Source of the DNA: Candidatus Micrarchaeota archaeon
GTDB taxonomy: Archaea > Micrarchaeota > Micrarchaeia > Micrarchaeales > CABMGC01
Assembly: GCA_021792235.1 (NCBI GenBank)
Contig: JAJYVC010000002.1
Location: 1-62,545, forward strand
Length of the DNA stretch: 62,545 nucleotides
Direction of reading: 5' to 3'
A model generated the notes under the pieces. That model searched no databases and had not been told where the DNA came from. It saw only the letters and a program-made list of their open reading frames with translations. Below are positions 5,021 to 51,534 of this stretch, in pieces. The position numbers were made by a program, and so were the translations under genes. Each line of letters starts with the position of its first letter. Position 1 is the stretch's first letter.

Positions 5021-5142
5021 CAGATCAAATCAGGCTGCACTCTTGCAAGCCTAAAGAAGTAATTCAGTGGGTATTTAAAAATATGGCAAGACAGTACGCT
5101 TCCTGTCTATCGTGACCGTAAAGCAAGAATTTTAAACGTGTT

Positions 5143-5790
5143 TTGCCCTATAGCATCATGGGCTTTCTAGTGTCTAACGTACTCGCGTACCGCCTTGATC
5201 CGAGCTGGTGGAAACTTGGAAAAGAGGAACGCAAAGAGATTCTTGATGTATTAAGGAGGATCATAGATGCGGCACGAGGAGGGCAGACGGGATCAAAGGC
5301 AGCGCTTTACTCATCGTTGAGGTACGACTGCAGCATTATAATCTGGCTCCTGATGGATAACCCGCAGAGGATAGCTGCAACAAGAGCATCAATCGAAAGG
5401 CTCATTTGCGGCTATGCATCTATAAAATACGGGTTCCTTTCGGTATACGAAAACAAGAACAAGGACTCTGGAAACAGGAAGTATTTCGTTGCGTATCCGA
5501 TAAGCAAGGATCCGGAATGGTACCTTCTGGACAGAAGCAAGCGGTCGGATATAATGGCGGAGCACATAAGTATGGCTACAAGCAATAAGAACAACAAGGG
5601 AATAAACTCTTATACGACGCTGTCGTTCGGCATAGACGACAATGAATTTGTTGTGCTTTACGAGCTTGACTCGCTGCACGAATGGGTCAAGGTTACGCAA
5701 GACCTCAGGGAAGCAAGTGCAAGGAAGTGGATAACGAACGAGAGACCCATACTTGTGGGTATAGACGACCTTGGTCCGCTTCTGGCATGA
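5143..5790 (+). CDS. hemQ: chlorite dismutase family protein, HemQ/ChdC-like (putative coproheme decarboxylase)
   Basis: FVAYPISKDPEWYLLDRSKRSDIMAEHI and LSFGIDDNEFVVLYELDSLHEWVKVTQDLREASARKW fit the Cld/HemQ fold signature. It lies in the haem gene cluster. Start is TTG 5143 or ATG 5158. Confidence 0.65.
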   Translation: MPYSIMGFLVSNVLAYRLDPSWWKLGKEERKEILDVLRRIIDAARGGQTGSKAALYSSLRYDCSIIIWLLMDNPQRIAATRASIERLICGYASIKYGFLSVYENKNKDSGNRKYFVAYPISKDPEWYLLDRSKRSDIMAEHISMATSNKNNKGINSYTTLSFGIDDNEFVVLYELDSLHEWVKVTQDLREASARKWITNERPILVGIDDLGPLLA

Positions 5791-5803
5791 TTATGGTGAT
5801 GCA

Positions 5804-6094
5804 ATGATAAATGTTGGAATGTACTATAATGTCAGGCAGGGGCACGAAGCGGAATTCGAGAGCACGTTTTCGCAGGTGGTGGAGCACCTTAAGAGCGCGA
5901 AGGTGGGGATAAGGGACGCCAAGCTTTACAGGGAGGTCGGAAAGAGCGAATACCTCATATACACAGAGTGGGAAAGCCTTGACTCCTTCAAGGGATTCAT
6001 ACAGAGCCGCGCCTTCAATGACACTGTAAGTGGTGGCAGATCCATAATTGAGGGACGGCCAAGGCACAGAGTATTTGCAGACGTCAATGAATAA
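5804..6094 (+). CDS. antibiotic-biosynthesis-monooxygenase (ABM) domain protein
   Basis: ~96 aa, MINVGMYYNVRQGHEAEFESTF...YLIYTEWESLDSFKGFIQSRAF, a typical ABM ferredoxin-like fold pattern. The start is taken at the ATG after the hemQ-like stop. Confidence 0.6.
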   Translation: MINVGMYYNVRQGHEAEFESTFSQVVEHLKSAKVGIRDAKLYREVGKSEYLIYTEWESLDSFKGFIQSRAFNDTVSGGRSIIEGRPRHRVFADVNE

Positions 6095-6113
6095 CTGGTA
6101 AAAGGCTCGTATA

Positions 6114-7820
6114 ATGCAGCGGCATGTCAGGCTTCACAGGAAGGTAGTGATCGGTACTAGGGGAAGCAGGCTTAGCCTTGCCCAGGCAAGAATAGTTGCA
6201 GACAGGATAAAGAAATCGTCTCCGGGCCTTGCTGTTGAAATAGTAGTCATAAAGACATATGGGGACGTGAAGAAGGACATGAAACTGGATAGGCTCGAAC
6301 AGCAGGGGGTCTTCGTAAAGGATATAGACCTGCAGCTTTTGGATGGCACCATAGACATTGCAGTGCACAGCCTTAAGGACATACCGACAAAGCTGCAGGA
6401 TGGAATAAGGATAGGAGCTATAGTCGAGAGGGCAGATCCCAGGGACGTTGTGATATCTAGAGATGGTTGTGGGCTTAGGGACCTTGCTAAGGGCGCAAAG
6501 ATAGGTACAAGCAGCATGCGCAGGAAGGGACAGCTCCTGCATTTCAGGAAGGATCTCAATGTAATGGAGATGCGTGGGAATGTAGATACGCGCATTGCAA
6601 AACTTGATGGAGGAGAATATGACGCCATAGTTCTTGCAGCAGCCGGAGTGGAGAGACTTGGGCTCTCAGACAGGATATCGGAATATCTACCATTTGAAGT
6701 CATGCTTCCGGCACCTGGACAGGGGGCGATAGCGGTGGAGATAAGAGACGGAGACGCTATGATAGAGCCCATAGTGCGAAAGATAGATGATGCGAAGGCA
6801 AGAGCAGAGGTGGAGGCTGAGAGGACGGTGCTTTCGAGGATTGGGGGAGGATGCAATGCGCTGTTAGGGGCGTATGCAAAGACGCATGGGAGCAGGCTCG
6901 AGATATCAGCTGCAATAACCAGCAGCAATGGTGAAATGAAGTACAGCTATTCGCAGGAGGGGTCGGTAAAGTTTCCAGATGAAGTCGGTATCGAGGTTGC
7001 GGAGAAGATACTGATGGGCAATGCTGCAGAAATCTTACCAGATAAAAGCGACAAATCCAGACTTGCCGGAAAGGTAGTGATGGTGACTAAGGATGAGAAG
7101 GAAGGAGAGGGGCTTTGCAAGTCACTGCTGGACAGACGAGCAATTCCGGTTTACTTCCCCACGATAAAACCTGTCAATATCAGTTACAGTATGAAAACCG
7201 CCCACAGAATAAATAAATATGACTTCGTACTGGTTACGAGCAGACGCGGAGCGGATAAATTGCTTGAGATATTGCAAGTGGTGGGACTTGAGAAGGATGC
7301 ATTCGGGCCGGTAGTCATTGCGATTGGGCCAGAGACACGCCAATACCTGTGGGGCAGGGGCATAGCTGCACGCAGCCTGCCTTCGGCCAAATATTCGAAG
7401 GACATTATTGAAGGGTTGGCAGGAGTTAAGGACAGAAGAGTACTCATAATAAATTCGGCGCTGGCAGGCAACGAATTGGCTGCGGGGCTATCTGCAAGAG
7501 GCGCCATTGTTGACAGGATCACACCATATGCGATGTACGTACCAAAAGTAAGCATGCAGAGGAAAAACATGGTGATGGGTTACAAATTGGATTTCATTAC
7601 GTTTGCAAGCCCTTCTGCTGTAACTGGATTTCTGAAAATACTTGGCAGGAAAAACGCGATGAGACTGCTCAGAAGGAGCAAGGTAGTATGCATAGGCGAA
7701 ACGACATCTGGAAAATGCGAGAAAGAGAACATAAAAGTATGCGGAATTGCTGGAGAGCACACTGTAGAAGGCATTGTCAAGTGTATGGAAAGGATTGCAG
7801 GTAGCCCATATGGAAAATGA
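6114..7820 (+). CDS. hemC: bifunctional hydroxymethylbilane synthase / uroporphyrinogen-III synthase (HemC-HemD fusion)
   Basis: Residues 1-~310 are HemC: VVIGTRGSRLSLAQA, SLKDIPT, RGNVDTRI, and the cofactor Cys in GGGCNALLGAYA. Residues ~317-568 are HemD-like: GKVVMVTKDEKEG...FTFASPSAVTGF. It is a single uninterrupted ORF of 568 aa. Confidence 0.85.
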   Translation: MQRHVRLHRKVVIGTRGSRLSLAQARIVADRIKKSSPGLAVEIVVIKTYGDVKKDMKLDRLEQQGVFVKDIDLQLLDGTIDIAVHSLKDIPTKLQDGIRIGAIVERADPRDVVISRDGCGLRDLAKGAKIGTSSMRRKGQLLHFRKDLNVMEMRGNVDTRIAKLDGGEYDAIVLAAAGVERLGLSDRISEYLPFEVMLPAPGQGAIAVEIRDGDAMIEPIVRKIDDAKARAEVEAERTVLSRIGGGCNALLGAYAKTHGSRLEISAAITSSNGEMKYSYSQEGSVKFPDEVGIEVAEKILMGNAAEILPDKSDKSRLAGKVVMVTKDEKEGEGLCKSLLDRRAIPVYFPTIKPVNISYSMKTAHRINKYDFVLVTSRRGADKLLEILQVVGLEKDAFGPVVIAIGPETRQYLWGRGIAARSLPSAKYSKDIIEGLAGVKDRRVLIINSALAGNELAAGLSARGAIVDRITPYAMYVPKVSMQRKNMVMGYKLDFITFASPSAVTGFLKILGRKNAMRLLRRSKVVCIGETTSGKCEKENIKVCGIAGEHTVEGIVKCMERIAGSPYGK

Positions 7821-8841
7821 CCTATTCTTGCGTGCGTGCAGGATGGAAAAGGTTGAACGCACACCGATATGGCTTATGCGGCAGGCGGGAAGGTACATTC
7901 CAAAATACAGGGAGATCAGGAAGACCCGCAGCATGATGGAGATATGCAAGGATCCGGACCTATCAGCAGAGGTATCTTCAATGCCAGTGGACATGTTCGG
8001 AGTAGACGCCGCAATAATATTTGAGGACTTAATGACGCCACTCGTACCATCCGGAATAAGATTTGGCCTAGTTGATAAAATAGGGCCAGTGATAAAAAAT
8101 CCGGTGGCAAACATTAATGATGTTGATAGATTAGGAGACTACGCCATGGATGAGCTGGGATTCGTGGCGGACACAATAAAACTGTTAAAAGGAAGGGTTG
8201 ATGTGCCGGTGATAGGTTTTGCTGGAGGGCCATTCACTATTTCATGCTACCTGATAGACGGCTCCAGAAGCGATGGATTCGCGAAAACCATTTGGATGAT
8301 GAATCATAAACCAGACGTATTCAAAGTCCTCATGGACAAGCTCACTGACATCATAATAAGATACCTTAAGCTGCAGGTGGGGAGTGGTGTCGATGCTGTG
8401 CAGGTCTTTGACACGTGGTGTGGAATGCTTGATGTAGATGCGTATCGGAGCCATGTCGCACAGAATTCCAAAAGGATCTTTGAAGCGCTATCTGCAATGA
8501 AAGCAGATATGCCAAAGGTGCATTTCGCCCTTGATTCTGCACGCATAAACAAACATATAGCATCACTTGGATGTGATGTGATGAGCATAGACTGGAGGAG
8601 CAGTATAGAAAATGTCAGGAAGCAGATAGGCCCATCGATGGGCATCCAGGGCAACCTTGATCCGGCAATACTGGCAGAAGGCGGCAAAAGGATGGTAGAT
8701 TCTGCTACAGAAATACTCAAGTCGGCAGAAGGGAGCAGGGGATACATATTCAATCTTGGACATGGCGTGTGGCCCAATACAGATCCAAGGGACGTAAAGA
8801 GGCTTGTTGAGCTGGTTCATTCATCTGGCAATAAAGGATAG
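7810..8841 (+). CDS. hemE: uroporphyrinogen decarboxylase
   Basis: MENDLFLRACRMEKVERTPIWLMRQAGRYIPKYREIR...DAAIIFEDL is the canonical UROD N-terminus. The ATG at 7810 overlaps the hemCD stop by 11 nt. Confidence 0.9.
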   Translation: MENDLFLRACRMEKVERTPIWLMRQAGRYIPKYREIRKTRSMMEICKDPDLSAEVSSMPVDMFGVDAAIIFEDLMTPLVPSGIRFGLVDKIGPVIKNPVANINDVDRLGDYAMDELGFVADTIKLLKGRVDVPVIGFAGGPFTISCYLIDGSRSDGFAKTIWMMNHKPDVFKVLMDKLTDIIIRYLKLQVGSGVDAVQVFDTWCGMLDVDAYRSHVAQNSKRIFEALSAMKADMPKVHFALDSARINKHIASLGCDVMSIDWRSSIENVRKQIGPSMGIQGNLDPAILAEGGKRMVDSATEILKSAEGSRGYIFNLGHGVWPNTDPRDVKRLVELVHSSGNKG

Positions 8842-8916
8842 TAGTGCTAGGCTTGCCGCTACCGCAACACGTATCAATATTTCTGGGCAAATAATTGCAT
8901 CTTGTTGGTCGGTCAA

Positions 8917-9906
8917 ATGCTGAGCTTGCATGCAACTTACAAGCGCATGGATATGAAGGAGCTTGAGGCGTGGTCTACGCTTGGCCAAGACCCGTTTGAA
9001 AATATGCTGCATTCAGGTCGCATTTGCGGCTACGTTATGCTAAAGACGTGCAATAGGGTAGAGATATACATAAGCAGTAAATCAAATGCAGATACTGCAG
9101 TAGAAATTGCAGCCGTCGCCGATAAGATTGGTTCCAAGAACTACTTTCTTCTGGAGGGCTTGGAATCCGCTAGACACCTAATGGAAGTATCTGCTGGCCT
9201 AGATTCAATGGTGATAGGGGATCAGGAGATACAAAGGCAGGTAAAGGAGGCCTTGATGGCGGCCCAGGTCTCCGGTGATGCTGATAGCATCCTTAATTAT
9301 GTATTCATGAAGGCGCTTAATGCGGGAAAGGAGGTTCGGGAAAAGACGCGAATATCAAGTGGCACTGTGTCAGTATCGCAGGTTGCAGTAAAGCTTCTTG
9401 AAGAAAGGAGCAGGGGCGAAATGTTTGGCAGGATTTGCATTATTGGCACGGGAAGAATGGGCATGTCAATAGCTAAATATCTAAGTAAGTACGGAAGATC
9501 TGTGTATCTGTCTGGCAGGTCACATGACAGACTAAGGAGAATAAGCGCGAAACTAGGCATTAATTATATAGACCTGGGCGATTTCAGCCCGGAGAGATTT
9601 GATTGCATAATTACTGCGACGTCTTCTCAAAGTCCGATAATAAAGATTGGCACGATTGATAAAAGTCCGGAGTTAGTGATTGACCTGGGGAATCCGAGGA
9701 ATGTTGATGCAGCCGGGAACAGAGGATATGTAGATTTGGATTCCTTGAAGGCCTTTGTGAGCAGGAACATAAGAGGCAGGTCAATGGAGATCGAGAAGGC
9801 GAAGGCCATAATAGACAGAAAGATAAGCCGTATGTCCAGGCATCCGTATTTTGAGGGCGGCCATGTGAGTCGCATTGAGCTGCACTCAGAGCTTGCAAAA
9901 CATTAA
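8917..9906 (+). CDS. hemA: glutamyl-tRNA reductase (short form, ~329 aa)
   Basis: Catalytic-Cys motif LKTCNRVEIY, an NAD(P) Rossmann motif ICIIGTGRMG, and GLDSMVIGDQEIQRQVK. It is about 80-90 aa shorter at the C-terminus than typical GluTRs. Confidence 0.85.
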   Translation: MLSLHATYKRMDMKELEAWSTLGQDPFENMLHSGRICGYVMLKTCNRVEIYISSKSNADTAVEIAAVADKIGSKNYFLLEGLESARHLMEVSAGLDSMVIGDQEIQRQVKEALMAAQVSGDADSILNYVFMKALNAGKEVREKTRISSGTVSVSQVAVKLLEERSRGEMFGRICIIGTGRMGMSIAKYLSKYGRSVYLSGRSHDRLRRISAKLGINYIDLGDFSPERFDCIITATSSQSPIIKIGTIDKSPELVIDLGNPRNVDAAGNRGYVDLDSLKAFVSRNIRGRSMEIEKAKAIIDRKISRMSRHPYFEGGHVSRIELHSELAKH

Positions 9907-9970
9907 TACTTTTGCATGCAGTACATGATATACAGACATCTTGTTGGATGCTGTTAAATCGTGATGGGTC

Positions 9971-11071
9971 ATGACATTTGCAAATAAGCCGGTTCTGGTC
10001 TTCTGGGAGATGACCAAGGCCTGCCCGCTAAGCTGTGCGCATTGCAGGGCCGATGCGATACGCAATCCTCTGCCGGGAGAATTGACTACCCAGGAAGGCA
10101 AAAGGCTGATAGATCAGATAACTCTATTCGGCAAGCCATATCCTGTAATGATATTCACGGGCGGGGATCCGCTTGCAAGGAAGGACCTTTATGATCTCCT
10201 GGAATATGCAAGGGACAAAGGCGTAAGTTTCGCTGTTAGCCCTGCTGTATCCGACAGCCTTACTCTTGAAGTGCTTAGAAAGCTCAAGGACATTGGAGTT
10301 TCTTCTATATCGGTCAGCCTAGATGGTTCAACGGGGGACACGCACGACGGCATAAGGCAGGTTGCAGGAACGTATGGCAGGACTATAGACACCATACGAA
10401 AGGCTATAGAAATCGGCCTGCCGATACAGGTGAACACTGCAGTCATGCGCAGAAACATGAGAGAAATGCCTGCCATTTTCAAGCTGATCCGTGGCTTGGG
10501 CGTGAGGACATGGGAGATCTTCTTCCTTGTAAAGACAGGCAGGGGGACTGGACTGGAGGATCTGTCCGCAGAAGAAAGTGAAAGTGTGTGCAATTTCCTA
10601 TACGATGCATCAAGATATGGAATGATTATAAGGACCGTAGAGGCGCCTTTCATACGCAGAGTCGTAAGACAAAGGACGCACAATGATCTCTACTGGAAAG
10701 AAGCAGTATATTATGGGATGAGACTTGAACTTAGGTCTGCCATGGGGGAACCGCATGGCCCTTCGACCATAAGGCCGCTGGGCACTCTAGACGGTGATGG
10801 GATCATATTCGTGTCACATAATGGAACAATATGCCCTGGTGGCTTCCTTCCACTGGAATTGGGCAACATGAAGGCTGACAATATTGTAGACGTTTATGCA
10901 GGGAACGGCATGCTCGTAAAGATAAGGAACAGGGAGTTTGAAGGGCCATGCGGCGAATGCGAATTCAGGAGCGAATGTGGAGGAAGCAGGGCCAGGGCAT
11001 GTGCATACTCTGGGAACCCGCTGGGATCAGATCCGTCGTGTATCCGTTCGGCAAGCGCCATGGGTGATTAG
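9971..11071 (+). CDS. radical SAM/SPASM-domain protein, AhbD/NirJ-like (putative O2-independent coproheme decarboxylase/haem synthase)
   Basis: CX3CX2C cluster motif in TKACPLSCAHCRA. C-terminal Cys-rich SPASM-like region: GTICPGG...GPCGECEFRSECGGSRARAC...DPSC. It sits between hemA and hemB. The functional subtype is inferred from context. Confidence 0.6.
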   Translation: MTFANKPVLVFWEMTKACPLSCAHCRADAIRNPLPGELTTQEGKRLIDQITLFGKPYPVMIFTGGDPLARKDLYDLLEYARDKGVSFAVSPAVSDSLTLEVLRKLKDIGVSSISVSLDGSTGDTHDGIRQVAGTYGRTIDTIRKAIEIGLPIQVNTAVMRRNMREMPAIFKLIRGLGVRTWEIFFLVKTGRGTGLEDLSAEESESVCNFLYDASRYGMIIRTVEAPFIRRVVRQRTHNDLYWKEAVYYGMRLELRSAMGEPHGPSTIRPLGTLDGDGIIFVSHNGTICPGGFLPLELGNMKADNIVDVYAGNGMLVKIRNREFEGPCGECEFRSECGGSRARACAYSGNPLGSDPSCIRSASAMGD

Positions 11072-11089
11072 ACGCCGGGTTTTCCGATA

Positions 11090-12037
11090 ATGAGGATGAG
11101 AAGATTACGGTCAAGCGAGGCCATAAGAAAGCTGTTTTCCGAGAGCAGAGTTGATACTTCAAAGCTCATAATGCCATTGTTCGTGCAGGAAGGCATAAAG
11201 GCGCGATCACCCATACCTTCAATGCCAAGACAATACCGGTATCCGCTTTCAGAGCTTGCAGGCATATCCTCAAAGATAGAGGAAGCTGGAATAGGGGCAG
11301 TGTTGCTTTTTGGAATACCGTCAAGCAAGGATGCGAAAGGCAGCGGAGCGTATGCCAAGAAGGGCATAATACAGAGGGCGGTTGAGGAGATAAAGGATGC
11401 ATCCTCGTTGGCTGTGATCGCAGACCTTTGCATGTGCGAGTACACAACATCTGGCCATTGCGGCGTATTGAAAGGAGGTGACGTGCACAATGATCTCACT
11501 CTCAATGCGTATGGAAAGATAGCTGTGTCGCAGGCTGACGCTGGTGCAGACATAATTGCACCTAGCGGAATGATGGATGGACAGGTTGCCAAGATACGAA
11601 AAGCATTGGATGCCAGCGGCCATGAGAATACACTCATAATGGCATATGCCGCAAAGATGGCCTCATCTTTTTATGGTCCGTTCAGGACTGCTGCGGACAG
11701 TACGCCAAAGAGCGGAGACAGGAAGTCATACCAGATGAGCTATTCGAATGCAAGGGAGGCTATGAGGGAGATTGCAATGGATGTAGAGGAAGGGGCAGAT
11801 GCAGTAATGGTAAAACCAGCGCTCACTAACCTGGATCTTGTAAGCAAGGCAAGGAGATTTGGGATTCCACTGGCTGCATACAACGTAAGTGGAGAGTATT
11901 CTGCAATAAATGCAGCTGCACAGCGTGGCTGGATAGATTACAAAAAGGCGGTGACAGAGGTATTGACATCCATTTCAAGGGCCGGAGCAGACATGATAAT
12001 AACCTATCATGCGCTTGAATTTGCCGGATGGAAATAG
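11090..12037 (+). CDS. hemB: porphobilinogen synthase (delta-aminolevulinate dehydratase), Zn-type
   Basis: MRMRRLRSSEAIRKLFSESRV, Cys-triad metal site DLCMCEYTTSGHCG, and Schiff-base region VMVKPAL. Confidence 0.9.
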   Translation: MRMRRLRSSEAIRKLFSESRVDTSKLIMPLFVQEGIKARSPIPSMPRQYRYPLSELAGISSKIEEAGIGAVLLFGIPSSKDAKGSGAYAKKGIIQRAVEEIKDASSLAVIADLCMCEYTTSGHCGVLKGGDVHNDLTLNAYGKIAVSQADAGADIIAPSGMMDGQVAKIRKALDASGHENTLIMAYAAKMASSFYGPFRTAADSTPKSGDRKSYQMSYSNAREAMREIAMDVEEGADAVMVKPALTNLDLVSKARRFGIPLAAYNVSGEYSAINAAAQRGWIDYKKAVTEVLTSISRAGADMIITYHALEFAGWK

Positions 12038-12043
12038 AGTATA

Positions 12044-12940
12044 TTAGGCAAAGCCGTTCCTTTTTGATATAGAGTACAGGCAACTTATTAGCTCCTTCGA
12101 GTAGTTTGGAGAGGTTGCTATTGCAACCTTACCTCCCGACTTATGTACGATTTCTGAGCATCTGATTCCGTCATCGTAAAGAGTCTCTAGATTATCGCTT
12201 ATGAAGCCTATCGGAGCGACTACGAAGTTTTTGGAGCCTGAAGATATCCTTGACTTTATGTGGTCATATATCACAGGACCAAGCCATGTACCACCAGACA
12301 TGCCGACGCTCTGGAATACCAGGGACCAGTTATCAATACCAAGCTTCCTGGAAACGAGACCTGACGCCTCACTGAGCTGACCTTTGTAGGTTTCAAGGTT
12401 ATCGGCATCGGTTATGGGAAGGCTGTGGGCAGTGAACACAAGTTCGGACTCGACTCCGCAGTCTTTGGCCGCCCTTGAAACGCTGTCGGACCAGTAAGAT
12501 ATCAATTCTGGCTCGTCGTGCCATGACTTGACATACTTCAATTTGACATTTGCGCCAATGTGCGATTCTTCAAGTTGCTTGAAATAACTCTCAGTGCCTA
12601 TCTTTGAGTAGAAAGGCGCCAGGGGCAGGCAGAGAAGTTCTGTTATTCCGTCATTTGCTATCTGCATTGCAGTCTCTTCTATGAACGGGGAGGAATGCTT
12701 CATACCTACATATACTTTGGTATCACTGCCGTGACTTTTTAGTGATTCGCGCAGCATGCTGACCTGCTTGCCGGTTATATCATTCAGGGGGGATATTCCG
12801 CCTATGCTGAGATATCTTCTCTGAAGCTCATCGATTTCCGCATCGCTGGGCCTCTTCCCTCTCCTTATGCTGGTAAAATACTCGCCAACTTGATCTGTGG
12901 ATTTAGGACTGCCGTATGCCATTAGGATTATGCCCTTCAT
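12044..12940 (-). CDS. hemH: ferrochelatase (paralog 1)
   Basis: MKGIILMAYGSPKS...RRYLSIGGISPL, FTAHSLP (catalytic His), FQSVG..GTWLGP, and GFISDNLETLYD (catalytic Glu). Confidence 0.85.
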   Translation of the reverse strand: MKGIILMAYGSPKSTDQVGEYFTSIRRGKRPSDAEIDELQRRYLSIGGISPLNDITGKQVSMLRESLKSHGSDTKVYVGMKHSSPFIEETAMQIANDGITELLCLPLAPFYSKIGTESYFKQLEESHIGANVKLKYVKSWHDEPELISYWSDSVSRAAKDCGVESELVFTAHSLPITDADNLETYKGQLSEASGLVSRKLGIDNWSLVFQSVGMSGGTWLGPVIYDHIKSRISSGSKNFVVAPIGFISDNLETLYDDGIRCSEIVHKSGGKVAIATSPNYSKELISCLYSISKRNGFA

Positions 12941-12961
12941 TTTTGCACCTTAATTCTGTAT

Positions 12962-13005
12962 TTGATATGTTCATTTGATATACCATGTTGATATTTAATT
13001 GATAT
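12962..13005. repeat. four direct copies of TTGATAT at 13/13/11-bp spacing, upstream of hemH paralog 1
   Basis: Copies at 12962, 12975, 12988 and 12999. Copies 1 and 4 extend to TTGATATGTT. They lie in the 104-bp spacer between the hemH start (12940) and the TnpB stop (13045). Confidence 0.6.
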
Positions 13006-13037
13006 GTTATGCATGCTGCTTTATGTTGTGACATCCT

Positions 13038-13058
13038 CTCCTAACTAAAGGTTAGGAG
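13038..13058 (-). repeat. perfect 8-bp stem / 5-nt loop hairpin straddling the TnpB stop codon (candidate IS right-end / omega-RNA structural element)
   Basis: CTCCTAAC (13038-13045), TAAAG loop, GTTAGGAG (13051-13058). Confidence 0.55.
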
Positions 13059-14271
13059 CTTCCCCTGCGTTTGCAGAGTCTGTTCCCAGCTCTTCGAGTC
13101 CGTTTGCATTCCCTGTTGGGATGTATTGACGATTCTCTCCCAGAGCGTGACTTTGGGAGTGTCCCTCCCTAGCTCTCTTGAGTATATTTATGGATGCGTT
13201 CATGTCCCTGTCCAGCTGCAACCTGCATCTATCGCAGTTGAATGCCATTATTTCCAGCGGCATCTCCATGATGTTGCCGCAGTTACTGCATTCCTTTGAA
13301 GTGTTATTGGGATTGACTTTTATTACTGCCTTTCCCCTTTCCTGCGCCTTGTAGGTCAGGAACTGCACAAACCTGCTCCATGAGGCGCTTTGGATTGACT
13401 GCGCAAGACGATGGTTTCTTTCCATGTTCTGGATCCTCAGTGCCTCTACTGCGAATGACGTGAATCCTCCATTTGCTAACTTTTGCGGAAGTTTGTGCAT
13501 GAAGTCGTTTGACTGACTTGTTACTGCGTTCCATTCTTCCTGAAGATGATACTTTGCCTTCTGTCTTCTCTTTTGAGCCCTTCTTGCGCCTGGCGACTAT
13601 TTTCTGCCATCTCGCAATCTTCTTTTCAGCCTTCTTGAAGAACTTTGGCTTCTGGAATGTCTCTCTGTTTGAAAGCGCAATGAAGTTATTGAGTCAGAGG
13701 TCTATGCCGACTGGGTTTGTATCCTTTATCTCTGGGATTTGTTTATGCTGAACTGCGGTAAATATTGCATAGTAATTGTTTTCTTCCTTTGCGATTGTCA
13801 GGGTCTTTATCTTGCCTTCTATATTCCTGTGCATCTCCATCCTTATCGTACCTGATATTTTTGATACCCTGAGCCTGTCTTTCTCTATCCTGAATGAGCC
13901 GTTGTTCTCTATGTGGGTGATGGATTTGTATTTATCCGTTGACTTGAACTTGGGAAATCCCTTTTTCTTTGCGTCTTCATTGCATCTGCCAAAGAAGTTT
14001 TGGTATGCCCTGAGCATCCTGTTCCTTATGTCTACCCTTACGTGGGCATAAAGGCGGTGATATTTTTGTCTTCTTTGAGTATCTCATTCATGTATTGATT
14101 AATGGTTCTCTGTGAAACTTTGCGTGACTGAATTGTCTTTTCCAGCAATTTGTTGTATAGTTCATGTGCAAGGAATATGGATTCGTCTATCTACTTCTGC
14201 CTTTTGAAGTCAGGGTAGAGCCCGAACTTGTAAACATGGACTATTTCCATGTTTCCTGTTTTGTTTTCCAT
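13045..14271 (-). pseudogene. tnpB: IS200/IS605-family TnpB (OrfB) RNA-guided nuclease gene, disrupted by at least 2 in-frame stops and 2 frameshifts
   Basis: Fragments read by hand. MEIVHVYKFGLYPDFKRQK* has its stop at 14191-14193, then a frameshift near 14040-14050. ...NPVGIDL* has TGA at 13694-13696 in place of the Gly codon of the GIDLG RuvC-I motif, then a frameshift near 13565-13580. The last fragment, ...FAVEALRIQNM (RuvC-II Glu)...CSNCGN..FNCDRCRLQLDRDMNASINI, carries the Zn finger and RuvC-III. Confidence 0.85.
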
Positions 14272-14301
14272 TCTTATATACCTTCTTGCACGCCATTACT
14301 C

Positions 14302-15312
14302 CTATCTCAAGGATAGAAGTTTGCGAGCGTGTTGAATTTTATCAACCACGATATCTGATAAGGCCTCGGCAAGCTTTGCAGACCCGTTAAGTGGCTTCAC
14401 CAGTGTTATACCTATTCTTGAAGCGGATGCCGCTTCCTTGCACATCGCAGCCAAGCCGTATAAGGTTTCGAAATTGTCGGCCACATATCCAAGCGGTACT
14501 ATGAGCACGTGATCGTACCCATTCTCCTTGCATTCTCGCACGAATCCAGTTATCTCTCTTACAGGCGCCGGATGTCCGCCAGTATAGTAGGCGCATGACC
14601 AATCTTGCAGGTCTAGGGACTTGGCGATTCTAGCTGCAAATGATTCAAAATTCCTTATATACGGATCACCGCCGTCTATGAACACCTTGGGCAGGCTGTG
14701 CGTAGCGAAGATGACCATCGTCCGGAGTTTCCTAAGCTTTGCGTATGGCTTTGATATTGCACTTTGCCAAGCTTCAGATAATTTCTCATTGTCATCCCAA
14801 GACTTCACTATGACTCCGTTTTTGCCGAACCCGTATTTCTTCAGGCTTGAGACAAACGTTTCTTCGTACTCATCACCGTATACCTTTGAGTATGTAGGGA
14901 ACATCACTATCCCTATTAACAGGGGGTTTGGGGAATTTTTGGCCTTTGCTACTGCTTCGTCTATTGATGGTCGCAGATGCTTCATTCCAACAAGAACCTT
15001 TGCGTCAATACCGATATTTTTCAACCTTGAATGTAGCATATTGGCTTGCTTAAGGGTTATTCTTACCAGGGGAGATCTGCCGCCTATTTTAGTATATTTC
15101 TCCCGAAGGGCTGCGAGCTGGTCTTCAGAAGGCTTCTTTAGGGCGTTGGCTACAGTGGCTGCATTGCGCGGATCTTTTAGAATACCAGCTACTAGCGACC
15201 TTGTTATTTTATGGTTGCGGTGCATGCTGCCCAGATAATCAGCTATCCCTTTCCTTCCATGTGGGCTTCCAACACTCATCAATATTACAAAGGTTTGATG
15301 TTCCGAATACAT
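14302..15312 (-). CDS. ferrochelatase-family protein (divergent paralog 2)
   Basis: FVILMSVGSPHG, KYTKIGGRSPL, FATHSLP, LGYVADNFETLYG. It lacks the FQS...WLGP motif (it has CAYYTGGHPAPVREI instead) and carries a ~30-aa N-terminal insertion relative to paralog 1. Confidence 0.7.
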   Translation of the reverse strand: MYSEHQTFVILMSVGSPHGRKGIADYLGSMHRNHKITRSLVAGILKDPRNAATVANALKKPSEDQLAALREKYTKIGGRSPLVRITLKQANMLHSRLKNIGIDAKVLVGMKHLRPSIDEAVAKAKNSPNPLLIGIVMFPTYSKVYGDEYEETFVSSLKKYGFGKNGVIVKSWDDNEKLSEAWQSAISKPYAKLRKLRTMVIFATHSLPKVFIDGGDPYIRNFESFAARIAKSLDLQDWSCAYYTGGHPAPVREITGFVRECKENGYDHVLIVPLGYVADNFETLYGLAAMCKEAASASRIGITLVKPLNGSAKLAEALSDIVVDKIQHARKLLSLR

Positions 15313-15502
15313 AGACTACAGCCCAAGCAAATTTGCTTCGTACTTAATATTAACACCATAACCCAATATTAATACATATAATGCCCTTTCTGCCGCATTA
15401 CTTGCCAGCACAAGTGTGTGCGTTGATGAGGATCTGGCCAGTTTATAACGTGGTTGTAAAAACAGTAATGTTTTTAGACCTATACAAAATATAATTATTA
15501 GT

Positions 15503-16981
15503 ATGGCCAGTGGTGCAGTACAGTCTGCCAAAAGTAGAGCTACGGGAAGAAAGGAGGACGCGGAAGGAAGCATAATGGGAGATATTAAAGCGGTTGCAGA
15601 AGAATACATGATAGAGAGCGGGCCATCTTATGGCAACAACTTCTTCTTCACTATAGGAGTTTATCTGTTGCTGCTTTTCGGTGTTCTTGTAGTGACAGGG
15701 ATAGTGATGGTGCTGTTCGGACCTTACTGGTGGGATCTTACTTCTATTGGTACGTTTATACGCAGCATACACATGTGGGCTGCAGAAGCGTTTGTCACAC
15801 TTATATTCATACACCTATTTGTCAATTTCAGCACTTCTGCATTCAGGAAAAGGAAGCTGATGTGGATAATAGGATCAGTAATGCTCATGCTAGTGCTTCT
15901 TGAGTTCGCATTTGGTGTAGGTATGGGTGGCAGCTTGCTGGCCCAGGCAAACCAGCAGGCCGGATCTGATCTCTGGAACGGGATGGGCCTAGGTTACTGG
16001 ATAAATCCAATGAATTCAGGCGCGGTTCTAGGCTGGCATATTGCCATCATACCGATAATCCTGATAGCGCTTATGTTCCTGCACTACAGCATTGTGCGCA
16101 AGAGAGGTCTAGTTACGCCATACAGGAAGGACATACCTTACAGTGTGACGCCGATAGACCATAAAATGATGTATAAGCGTATGATCTACCTTCTAATTAT
16201 AGTGCTAGCCTTCGCAGTGCTGTTCAGGGCCCCGTATATGCCGCCACTGACCATAAGCCAGGCAGCCAATCAGAATCCGGACGCTGTTGCAAGCGCATTC
16301 CTAAACGAATCTAACATGACATCCGCTACAGCCACCTACATCGACACGATAGATCCTTTCAGATTCAACACGCGGTACGTGTATGTCACCTATCCATATT
16401 CTGTATACTTGAATCTAACGCACTCGAAAAACCTTGAGGCACAGTTCCTAGCGGAAAGCACATCACAGCAAAACGACACGCTGGCACAGGCATATGCTTA
16501 TTTCGAGGCCAATGGAAGCATCAGGAGCGGGACCAATTCCACCAATCCGATGATAGGGTTAGCTTCAACGCTTACATACATGGCGCAAACTGGAGCATAC
16601 CAGCCAATCCTTCAAAGCGAAGTTGCTGGAGGCATGAACTATACCTATGTTATAAGGTTCCTGTACGACACAGGTGCACTGTGGAATGCCGCAAGCCAGT
16701 ACAACATAAGCGTGCCGCAGTGGGGCATGCTTACAGTAGGCGGCAACCCCCCATTGCGTCTGGAGTACTGGCTTATACCTTATAATTTCATGCAGATAGC
16801 GATGGCTGGAGTGCCTTGGTGGAATGACCTTGAAAACGGCACAGTAGTATTCTTGGCATTCCTGATATTCCTATTCTTGCCATACATACCAGGACTTAGG
16901 GCAATACCTGATAAATTAAAACTTTATAAATTGTTCTGGAACAGGTTTACCGTGCCTGAGATGCGGAAGGAGAAAAAGTAG
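15503..16981 (+). CDS. cytochrome b N-terminal-domain protein fused to a large Asn-glycosylation-rich extracytoplasmic domain
   Basis: Two bis-His helices: IHMWAAEAFVTLIFIH (His-x13-His) and WHIAIIPIILIALMFLH (His-x14-His). About 5 N-terminal TM helices, then ~220 aa with 8 or more NxS/T sequons, then a terminal TM helix. Alternative start at ATG 15575. Confidence 0.7.
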   Translation: MASGAVQSAKSRATGRKEDAEGSIMGDIKAVAEEYMIESGPSYGNNFFFTIGVYLLLLFGVLVVTGIVMVLFGPYWWDLTSIGTFIRSIHMWAAEAFVTLIFIHLFVNFSTSAFRKRKLMWIIGSVMLMLVLLEFAFGVGMGGSLLAQANQQAGSDLWNGMGLGYWINPMNSGAVLGWHIAIIPIILIALMFLHYSIVRKRGLVTPYRKDIPYSVTPIDHKMMYKRMIYLLIIVLAFAVLFRAPYMPPLTISQAANQNPDAVASAFLNESNMTSATATYIDTIDPFRFNTRYVYVTYPYSVYLNLTHSKNLEAQFLAESTSQQNDTLAQAYAYFEANGSIRSGTNSTNPMIGLASTLTYMAQTGAYQPILQSEVAGGMNYTYVIRFLYDTGALWNAASQYNISVPQWGMLTVGGNPPLRLEYWLIPYNFMQIAMAGVPWWNDLENGTVVFLAFLIFLFLPYIPGLRAIPDKLKLYKLFWNRFTVPEMRKEKK

Positions 16982-17051
16982 CCCCAGCCAGATTCGAACT
17001 GGCGTACACGGGTCCAAAGCCCGTGGTCCTTGGCCGCTAGACGATGGGGCT
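16979..17051 (-). tRNA. tRNA-Gln (anticodon UUG)
   Basis: Hand-folded cloverleaf: acceptor AGCCCCA/TGGGGCT, D stem GTCT/GGAC, anticodon stem ACGGG/CCCGT with loop CTTTGGA, T arm GCCAG-TTCGAAT-CTGGC. No encoded CCA and no intron. Confidence 0.9.
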
Positions 17052-50743: not shown

Positions 50744-51247
50744 ATGAGCACAATAAGAAAACTGATTGAAAGAGCGGACAAGGTATTAAGATTCCCAACT
50801 GCTTACGCGCACTGCGACATACCATGCGGCATATACGATCCTCATGCGGCGCAGGTTGCAGCACACACAGTAGTAAGGATGGACATGCTCATTGCAGATG
50901 CAATGAAGTCTGGAGCTGCAAGCGCAGAAGATAGAAACAAAATTATCAGGTACGTTGGCGTGAAGGAGCAACACGCGGAGATAGTGAAGCATGAAGTTGC
51001 AGTCATATGGGGAGACTACATGAAGCCTGAGCACGCAAAGGCGCATCCTGAGCTTCATGAGCTCGTATGGAACACGCTAAAGCTTGCGGGCAAGGCAAAG
51101 CAGAGCACCAACATACAGGATGCAGAGGCCCTGCTTGAGAGCGTGCAGAAGTTCGCAGAGGCGTTCTGGGCCACGAAGAACGTACAGACGACAAGAGCGA
51201 AATCCTTTTACCCTACAGAGAGGACCTTCGTATACCCTAAAGTATAA
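50744..51247 (+). CDS. sodN: nickel-containing superoxide dismutase precursor
   Basis: Ni-hook motif HCDIPCGIYDP at 50810-50842, preceded by a 22-aa leader MSTIRKLIERADKVLRFPTAYA. A four-helix-bundle-like remainder follows. Confidence 0.85.
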   Translation: MSTIRKLIERADKVLRFPTAYAHCDIPCGIYDPHAAQVAAHTVVRMDMLIADAMKSGAASAEDRNKIIRYVGVKEQHAEIVKHEVAVIWGDYMKPEHAKAHPELHELVWNTLKLAGKAKQSTNIQDAEALLESVQKFAEAFWATKNVQTTRAKSFYPTERTFVYPKV

Positions 51248-51249
51248 GC

Positions 51250-51534
51250 ATGAGGCTTCCTCTGATGATATACAGGGTTGCTGAGCGCAGCATGGAGCCA
51301 TCCATAATGGAAGGCTCATATGTCATAGTAAACTGCTGGCCGCTCAGAATGCGCAGAGATGACGTGGTCGTTGCAAAGGATCCTTACGGAAGAATCATAG
51401 TCAAGAGAGTGAAGAGGGTGAAGGACGGAAAGCTCTTCCTTGTTGGAGACAACGCACGCAGGAGCATTGACAGCAGGAGGTTCGGATGGGTGGATATGGA
51501 AAGGGCATTTGGCAAGGTCATCGCCGTTGTCTAA
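51250..51534 (+). CDS. sodX: NiSOD maturation protease (S26 signal-peptidase-I family)
   Basis: 94 aa. Ser nucleophile motif ERSMEPS, Lys in IVKRV, and GDNARRSIDSRRFGWV. It starts 3 nt after the sodN stop. Confidence 0.8.
   Translation: MRLPLMIYRVAERSMEPSIMEGSYVIVNCWPLRMRRDDVVVAKDPYGRIIVKRVKRVKDGKLFLVGDNARRSIDSRRFGWVDMERAFGKVIAVV

Follow-up and report, generated by a model that had tools for sequence, protein, structure and literature searches.

A probable coproporphyrin-dependent haem synthesis locus in a Candidatus Micrarchaeota archaeon, with two candidate enzymes for its last step

The DNA analysed here, called the window in the following, comprises 62,545 nucleotides from a Candidatus Micrarchaeota archaeon, a tiny acidophile of the DPANN group (assembly GCA_021792235.1, contig JAJYVC010000002.1, positions 1 to 62,545 of the forward strand) and carries a dense set of tetrapyrrole genes between positions 5143 and 16981. 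We consider it probable, at roughly 70%, that this locus encodes haem b biosynthesis of the coproporphyrin-dependent (CPD) type, the last step of which would be carried out by a ChdC-like protein with an ABM-domain partner or by a radical S-adenosylmethionine (SAM) enzyme of the TIGR04053 family. A sequence-only reading of the stretch had proposed a HemE-HemH-HemQ route of bacterial style with two alternative terminal enzymes. Every gene that it named has been recovered in place as an intact open reading frame (ORF) by ORF scanning and by matches to Pfam and NCBIfam models. Nine tetrapyrrole genes lie within 10 kb, and since this arrangement recurs in related genomes, a chance pattern is excluded; identical copies of the cluster in several public assemblies show that it is no accident of assembly either.

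Gene content, family membership and catalytic residues, together with the conservation of the operon and the settings in which the radical SAM family is found, lead us to infer a route in which HemA would form glutamate-1-semialdehyde, from which HemL (outside the window) would give 5-aminolaevulinic acid (ALA). HemB would then produce porphobilinogen, the HemC-HemD fusion uroporphyrinogen III, and HemE coproporphyrinogen III. Oxidation to coproporphyrin III would fall to a HemY/CgoX-type oxidase, which is not found in the window and lies within the operon of a relative (locus L022), or alternatively to autoxidation. Insertion of iron by the ferrochelatase FC1 would yield coproheme, for which two ways to haem b may be postulated. 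One would lead through the ChdC-like protein, using O2/H2O2 chemistry and a catalytic Tyr, with the ABM protein probably receiving the haem b; the other, when oxygen is scarce, would be an AhbD-type, SAM-dependent reaction of the TIGR04053 enzyme. The neighbouring cytochrome b is a likely client and consumer of the product.

Seven plus-strand genes spanning 5158-12037 encode a protein of the chlorite dismutase (Cld) family, the ABM protein, a HemC-HemD fusion, HemE, HemA, the radical SAM enzyme and HemB. As the spacing between them ranges from -11 to 75 nt, they have been assigned to one operon. Beside it, a decayed TnpB element separates two minus-strand ferrochelatase-family genes, and a cytochrome b gene follows. 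The fusion of hydroxymethylbilane synthase and uroporphyrinogen-III synthase (6114-7820) matches PF01379, PF03900 and PF02602 (HEM4) and reaches 337 bits on TIGR00212 (cut-off 164). Uroporphyrinogen decarboxylase, HemE (343 aa, 7810-8841, longest ORF from 7774), scores 366 bits on TIGR01464 (cut-off 303); its gene overlaps hemCD by 11 nt, a start that is supported by the gene call in identical contigs. HemB, porphobilinogen synthase (11090-12037), has been identified by PF00490 (E 2e-133) and NF006762 (442 bits, cut-off 297). Glutamyl-tRNA reductase, HemA (329 aa, 8917-9906, longest ORF from 8902; PF05201 and PF01488), is a short form without the C-terminal dimerisation domain, which reaches 179 bits on TIGR01035, below the cut-off of 209.55, over model positions 4-329 of 416. 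A short HemA is also seen in the relative L013 (11046-11990), and HemA lengths range from 314 to 329 aa.

The ferrochelatase expected to act in this route is FC1 (298 aa, 12044-12940, minus strand), which scores 182 bits on TIGR00109 (cut-off 125) and finds its best matches in the Protein Data Bank (PDB) among Bacillus ferrochelatases/CpfC (E 4e-55). It keeps the B. subtilis residues Tyr13, Arg30, Arg31, Arg46, Tyr47, Ser54, Lys87, His88, His183, Trp230 and Glu264, among which the roles of the proximal Tyr, the distal His and the Glu of CpfC have been described in the literature. By its residues FC1 is therefore predicted to be a Firmicutes-like, CpfC-type enzyme with coproporphyrin as its substrate.

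The first gene of the operon encodes the ChdC/HemQ-like protein (210 aa, 5158-5790, longest ORF from 5143, plus strand; PF06778, E 2e-36). Its best PDB match is TA0507 of Thermoplasma acidophilum (3DTZ, E 7e-39; profile 220 bits), a protein placed in the HemQ family by the literature. Tyr113, Pro114, Lys117 and His136 are invariant in 20 homologues. In profile alignments His136 coincides with the proximal His, and Tyr113 with the Tyr of the YPF motif in Streptomyces coelicolor ChdC, where Nitrospira Cld has Ile; the catalytic Tyr of ChdC, whose role has been described, is Y135 in Corynebacterium diphtheriae. Where Nitrospira Cld carries its catalytic Arg173 (replaced by Gln in the aligned chain, 4m09, an R173Q variant), the window protein has Ser. 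A distal Arg is the residue that defines functional chlorite dismutases, and a true chlorite dismutase is ruled out by this replacement. The alpha+beta barrel fold of the family is found both by PF06778 and in an AlphaFold2 model (pLDDT 88.6), for which Foldseek gives TM scores of 0.77-0.83 to TA0507 and to the ChdC proteins of S. coelicolor, C. diphtheriae and Listeria monocytogenes. We therefore propose the protein as a candidate O2/H2O2-dependent coproheme decarboxylase, ChdC-like and not a proven ChdC.

The ABM-domain protein (96 aa, 5804-6094, longest ORF from 5771, plus strand; PF03992) is encoded 13 nt further on, so that Cld-like and ABM proteins are products of separate genes and not one polypeptide as in PitA. 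An ABM gene stands directly 3' of the Cld-like gene in nine other Micrarchaeota contigs, with 62-80% identity between the ABM proteins. The window protein shows a weak similarity to HmuQ and matches positions 541-635 of the 637 of NF007124, a 'heme-binding protein' model, with E 1e-11 and far below the cut-off; this model we take to be the PitA family. By analogy, the protein may act as a haem- or coproheme-binding acceptor. Trp67 and His77 of IsdG are presumably not conserved in it, a lead that would speak against a haem oxygenase of the IsdG type.

The radical SAM enzyme (9971-11071, plus strand) has been described in the sequence-only reading as AhbD-like. AhbD is indeed its closest characterised family, with 273 bits on TIGR04545 over the full length, compared with 200 for NirJ2 and 167 for AhbC; since it falls short of the AhbD cut-off (500 bits) and passes that of TIGR04053 (459 bits, cut-off 395), it is assigned to this sister family instead. 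A maturase of ribosomally synthesised and post-translationally modified peptides, the non-haem SPASM identity that was named as a possible refutation, has been rejected, as the best such model gives about 104 bits. The motifs C18-x3-C22-x2-C25 and C327-x2-C330-x5-C336-x20-C357 are invariant in 121 family members; the C-terminal CX2CX5CX20C is of the auxiliary-cluster type described for NirJ, AhbC and AhbD, with NirJ-type spacing. No genes for SUMT, AhbA/B or AhbC occur among the window annotations, and the partner set of AhbD is hence absent there. Next to haem genes the family has been found in four arrangements: HemA-radical SAM-HemB in the window, radical SAM-HemB beside FC2 and cytochrome b in L007, radical SAM beside FC1 and FC2 in L011, and within the operon in L022.

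With identities of 37-43%, further family members have been located by tblastn against plasmids, namely on Thermus thermophilus megaplasmids and in the Bacillus cereus group, Deinococcus and many haloarchaea; five of them were checked, and all reach 483-522 bits with the TIGR04053 model and 343-372 with that of AhbD. Their neighbours are nitrite reductase, a NOR-like oxidase subunit and cytochromes c in Thermus, adhE and the anaerobic ribonucleotide reductase genes nrdDG in Bacillus thuringiensis, and nirK, a norB-like gene and halocyanin in Halogeometricum and Haloferax larsenii. In Haloferax volcanii, 'ahbD' (HVO_2144) lies between nirK (HVO_2141) and the genes of a blue copper protein (HVO_2145) and norB (HVO_2147), and its deletion blocks anaerobic growth only, a defect that haem rescues (Kosugi et al.). 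The synteny in other haloarchaea, rather than the HVO_2144 sequence, suggests that this gene belongs to TIGR04053. Together with the locations in denitrification islands and next to nrdDG, the Haloferax locus strengthens the idea, put forward in the sequence-only reading, of two alternative terminal enzymes, and for the radical SAM enzyme of the window the role of an O2-independent coproheme decarboxylase (haem synthase) is proposed on the grounds of its family and of this analogy. The TIGR04053 hosts that were checked make coproheme and own ChdC-type enzymes.

Three observations on the family stand apart from this argument. On the Thermus thermophilus plasmid pAA3-7b (L100, 6294-9553) the radical SAM gene directly 3' of nitrite reductase in the denitrification island belongs to TIGR04053 (483 bits) and is not NirJ; instead of making haem d1, the Thermus enzyme may provide haem b under anaerobic conditions. 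On Halogeometricum pHBOR02 (L102, 8070-8384), a 104-aa ORF annotated as 'glutamyl-tRNAGlu reductase' directly follows the TIGR04053 gene, a small further link of the family to tetrapyrrole genes in this denitrification island. The family is also abundant in metagenome-assembled genomes (MAGs) of Nitrososphaerota and Marsarchaeota, at 57-62% identity. As Nitrosopumilus has been reported to have ahbA/B and no ahb-nirJ1/J2 (Storbeck et al.), TIGR04053 may be the absent haem radical SAM enzyme of Nitrososphaerota.

Relatives of the locus have been found with an alignment of the Cld-like protein as the query against species-representative genomes, whereas a contig scan with a single HemE protein returned nothing. 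The closest loci belong to Candidatus Micrarchaeota MAGs from acid mine drainage (45-65% identity), and the closed genome of Ca. Micrarchaeum sp. A_DKE is among the matches; Marsarchaeota, Thermoplasmata and Sulfolobales follow at about 40-45%. The nearest Micrarchaeota relatives (L013-L023) share a common operon, Cld-ABM-FC-HemCD-HemE(-HemA), whereas in a second group, which includes A_DKE, a Cld-FC pair faces HemE-HemD-HemC. In L022 a single operon holds ChdC-ABM-CpfC-CgoX-radical SAM-HemCD-HemE; its CgoX, of 491 aa, falls into the HemY/CgoX oxidase family with 266 bits on TIGR00562 (cut-off 98). By its family assignments the L022 operon is a complete post-uroporphyrinogen CPD set plus a radical SAM enzyme. 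The Cld-like gene of TA0507 type also occurs on oddly labelled contigs, L030 (Methanothrix sp., with a Micrarchaeota-like Cld-FC pair), L076 (bacterium) and L039 (Thermoprotei), which have probably been mis-binned.

Pairwise identities indicate that the gene set has a mixed history. The nearest relatives of HemE outside a small Micrarchaeota clade are about 45% identical and include Actinobacteria, Gaiellaceae and Scopulibacillus, and the two Micrarchaeota HemE lineages are no closer to one another (33-41% identity) than each is to bacterial-like matches (41-47%). FC1 of the window is 63% identical to FC1 of L011 and about 42% to the in-operon ferrochelatase of the nearest relatives. HemC, like HemE, is 33-41% identical across the two operon types (L026-L040 versus L013-L023). 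On the basis of these identities, gene replacement or repeated, separate acquisition is suggested. The closest clade members of the Cld-like protein and of the radical SAM enzyme are archaeal, and so the label 'bacterial-style' given to the cluster in the sequence-only reading fits HemE and FC1 only; judged from these matches, the set is a mosaic and not simply bacterial.

The second ferrochelatase-family protein, FC2 (336 aa, 14302-15312, minus strand), is a divergent paralogue with 147 bits on TIGR00109 (cut-off 125). It keeps Lys87, His183 and Glu264, and all three FC2 sequences (window 14302-15312, L007 4022-5020, L011 11988-13142) share the changes Tyr13 to Val, Gln221 to Tyr and Asp268 to Gly and the deletion of the Trp230 region; an N-terminal insertion of about 25 aa is added. 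A comparison with 1.84 billion representative proteins has yielded one close relative, at 59% identity, the next match standing at 36%. In L011 the FC2 and FC1 genes are adjacent with a 4-nt overlap, whereas in the window the TnpB remnant lies between them, and the divergent pair of FC2 and cytochrome b is also seen in L007/L008. FC2 may be a second chelatase subunit, a chelatase for another metal or porphyrin, or a haem hand-over factor for cytochrome b. One published survey of ferrochelatases left archaeal genomes aside altogether.

A number of findings weigh against the CPD-type reading and have to be set against its support. In the profile hidden Markov model searches that had been recommended as a check, UROD and the ferrochelatases score above their cut-offs, but the Cld-like protein stays below those of the HemQ equivalogs (71 against 235 bits on NF042928, 35 against 253 on NF008913) and the radical SAM protein misses the curated AhbD cut-off (273 against 500 bits). 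The latter protein is moreover one Cys short of the AhbD motif CX2CX5CX2CX17C, with Ser at the fourth Cys position, and has no counterpart of the first two SPASM cysteines. The membership of HVO_2144 in TIGR04053 rests on synteny, and in Nitrososphaerota the family does not lie beside haem genes, a faint AsnC-type gene being found 5 kb away. FC2 has no place in the proposed scheme, neither HemL nor CgoX/CgoN has been found in the 62.5-kb window, and no biochemical test of any protein of the TA0507 clade has been found in the literature.

The low HemQ scores and the lack of such an assay are also what one would expect if the radical SAM enzyme alone decarboxylated coproheme and the Cld-like/ABM pair served haem storage or chaperoning, peroxide detoxification or haem degradation, leaving one terminal enzyme. 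In Thermoplasmata and Sulfolobales the TA0507 clade indeed occurs alone, hemE and ferrochelatase genes being absent up to a distance of 10 kb, the ABM protein is weakly similar to haem-degrading HmuQ, and the ABM part of PitA binds haem. Yet Tyr, Lys and the proximal His of the Cld-like protein are invariant and the Cld-specific Arg is absent; in every Micrarchaeota relative, even where no radical SAM gene lies close by, the haem operon begins with the Cld-like gene; and deletion of PitA impairs aerobic growth, which haem restores. We thus regard a single terminal enzyme as unlikely.

The absence of HemL and CgoX from the window, noted already in the sequence-only reading, has been borne out by Pfam annotation of the remainder of the 62.5 kb and, for CgoX, by tblastn with the protein of a relative. 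An adjoining aminotransferase has been considered as a substitute for HemL and rejected, being of the class I/II alanine/aspartate aminotransferase type. CgoX was present in one of the 99 loci examined, and a scan of metagenomes for relatives of the L022 protein has returned only a 23%-identical match. With respect to the proposed HemE-HemH-HemQ route, the intact diagnostic residues and CgoX in the L022 operon speak for it, and no gene of the window accounts for the CgoX and HemL steps. A symbiont without HemL, CgoX or both might instead run an incomplete or salvage pathway, be supplied with ALA, a porphyrin intermediate or haem by a Thermoplasmatales host and carry out no more than part of the steps on its own; genomes of DPANN archaea are reduced, and for Mia14, reported to have no haem synthesis, haem scavenging from Cuniculiplasma has been proposed. 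However, the nine tetrapyrrole ORFs are all intact and organised in operons, HemA and HemB would serve no purpose if ALA were not synthesised, and the visible part of the genome amounts to 62.5 kb. Coproporphyrinogen, furthermore, autoxidises readily in air. Dependence of this kind appears quite improbable to us.

Least probable of all is that the radical SAM enzyme performs another O2-independent porphyrin reaction, either a CgdH-like decarboxylation of coproporphyrinogen III to protoporphyrinogen IX, which would feed FC2 as a chelatase of the protoporphyrin type, or a coproporphyrinogen oxidation in place of CgoX: such a role would suit the lack of CgoX in the window, the linkage of the radical SAM gene to FC2 in L007 and L011, the loss in FC2 of Tyr13 as the proximal residue of CpfC, and the failure of the enzyme to qualify as a bona fide AhbD, but among characterised families AhbD matches by far the best and acts on coproheme, the very intermediate of the CPD route, CgdH/HemN is stated in the literature to share no substantial sequence similarity with AhbD beyond general radical SAM features, CgoX and the radical SAM gene stand in one operon in L022, and the Haloferax gene at the syntenic locus acts as an anoxic haem synthase in an organism that makes coproheme through AhbC.

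Around the haem genes, additional features have been recorded. A TATA-like box, ATTTTAAA (5129-5136, plus strand), has been read from the sequence about 26 nt 5' of the ATG at 5158, where it may serve as the putative promoter of a leaderless operon transcript. Two features go beyond the list of the sequence-only reading. The first is the decayed TnpB remnant of IS200/IS605 type (13045-14017, minus strand), which consists of two ORF fragments (13045-13500 and 13694-14017); a 151-aa fragment matches PF07282, the Cas12f1-like TNB domain (E 4e-24), and the second has no Pfam match. Its position matches that of a moved ferrochelatase gene, the ferrochelatase gene of relatives following the ABM gene. 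The second is a tRNA-Gln(TTG) at 16978-17051 (minus strand; ARAGORN; Rfam RF00005, 55.7 bits), which ends the cluster and is followed by uvrC-uvrA-uvrB. Between FC2 and this tRNA, and divergent from FC2, lies the gene of the cytochrome b family membrane protein (492 aa, 15503-16981, plus strand; PF13631, E 2e-15).

The rest of the window also encodes an intein-containing AAA ATPase and a ribosomal protein block, and HMG-CoA reductase, thiolase/HMG-CoA synthase and diphthamide synthase are archaeal markers on the contig. Bacterial contamination or mis-binning is ruled out by these markers and by the preservation of the cluster in the closed Micrarchaeum genome. The AAA ATPase gene (21-1214) is cut by the window start, and its intein carries a LAGLIDADG homing-endonuclease domain. 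At 50744-51534 a gene for nickel superoxide dismutase (Sod_Ni), followed by a small S24/S26-type peptidase gene, points by its annotation to an oxygen-exposed lifestyle.

Compared with the CPD pathway of Firmicutes and Actinobacteria (HemE/UroD, CgoX, CpfC, ChdC), the likeness lies in HemE, in the Bacillus-like CpfC with Tyr13, His183 and Glu264, in the ChdC-like protein with its Tyr and proximal His, and in the HemY/CgoX gene of the L022 operon. The window differs in its DPANN host, its archaeal ChdC of the TA0507 clade with scores below the bacterial HemQ cut-offs, the ABM gene after the ChdC-like gene, the fused HemC-HemD, the radical SAM gene in the operon, the second, divergent ferrochelatase paralogue and the lack of CgoX in the window. 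With Thermoplasmatales it shares hemE, hemH and a Cld-like protein of TA0507 type. A report from 2010 found hemE and hemH but no ahb-nir genes in T. acidophilum, T. volcanium and P. torridus and called the route 'unclear'; the Cld-like gene of Thermoplasmata has neither hemE nor a ferrochelatase gene within 10 kb of it, whereas in the window a single operon with a radical SAM gene is seen. The statement of the sequence-only reading that archaea generally lack HemE, HemH and HemQ was hence too strong, given hemE/hemH in Thermoplasma and Picrophilus, TA0507-type Cld-like proteins in Thermoplasmata, Sulfolobales and Marsarchaeota, and PitA in haloarchaea.

Haloferax PitA, a Cld-ABM fusion that has been described to support aerobic haem synthesis and to bind haem by its ABM part, offers with HVO_2144 a close parallel in both respects, namely the coupling of Cld-like and ABM proteins and an AhbD-type radical SAM enzyme as the O2-independent alternative; as in the window, the gene found at this syntenic position in haloarchaea belongs to TIGR04053. 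In haloarchaea, however, coproheme is made from sirohaem via AhbA-C, with no HemE or CpfC, whereas in the window it would come from coproporphyrin, and the haloarchaeal Cld and ABM parts are fused by a His-rich linker whereas the genes of the window are separate and adjacent. With AhbD of M. barkeri and Desulfovibrio (TIGR04545) the window enzyme has the CX3CX2C motif and a C-terminal auxiliary-cluster motif in common; it differs in its score (273 against 500 bits), in having one motif Cys fewer and in the lack of AhbA/B/C partners in the window. The TIGR04053 proteins of Thermus, Deinococcus, the Bacillus cereus group (on plasmids) and haloarchaea belong to the same NCBIfam equivalog family at 37-43% identity; elsewhere the family resides in islands of denitrification or anaerobic metabolism, whereas the Micrarchaeota copies provide a direct link to a haem operon.

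The CPD pathway, AhbD-type enzymes in CPD organisms, hemE and hemH in Thermoplasmatales, the structure of TA0507 and the PitA/AhbD pair of Haloferax are all already known. HemC, HemE and HemH have been listed for some Micrarchaeota in one comparative paper, without analysis; a description of the full operon in DPANN archaea, of a separate Cld-ABM gene pair or of a link between TIGR04053 and haem operons has not been found in the literature. According to reviews, organisms with the CPD pathway have, or can be expected to have, an AhbD-like enzyme, and a paper of 2024 on Bacillaceae calls the oxygen-independent counterpart of ChdC 'yet unknown'. The paper on Mia14 has reported no haem synthesis genes in this strain and no complete known pathway in its host Cuniculiplasma. 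A MAG of Candidatus Mancarchaeum sp. (L028, DAHXOG010000045.1, 797-4972) carries Cld-FC facing HemE and HemC, and with regard to this report either the strains differ or the haem genes were overlooked in annotation.

DPANN archaea have usually been treated as cofactor auxotrophs, and the locus extends a known pathway to a lineage assumed to scavenge. The intact CPD-type operon across Micrarchaeota, including A_DKE, suggests that many of them make their own haem, and it offers a concrete candidate haem route for acidophilic archaea. It connects TIGR04053 to haem synthesis more directly than any other genomic evidence found and makes the oxygen-independent counterpart of ChdC testable, while FC2 represents a near-orphan branch of the ferrochelatase family. 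One may further postulate, tentatively and at odds well below even, that the CPD pathway exists in Micrarchaeota in an archaeal form of its own, three parts of which would be without a characterised equivalent: an obligatory terminal module of ChdC and ABM, TIGR04053 as the O2-independent coproheme decarboxylase of ChdC organisms, and a lineage-restricted FC2 that is devoid of the proximal Tyr and in a relative is co-transcribed with CpfC; were this true, these DPANN cells would be haem prototrophs and not scavengers.

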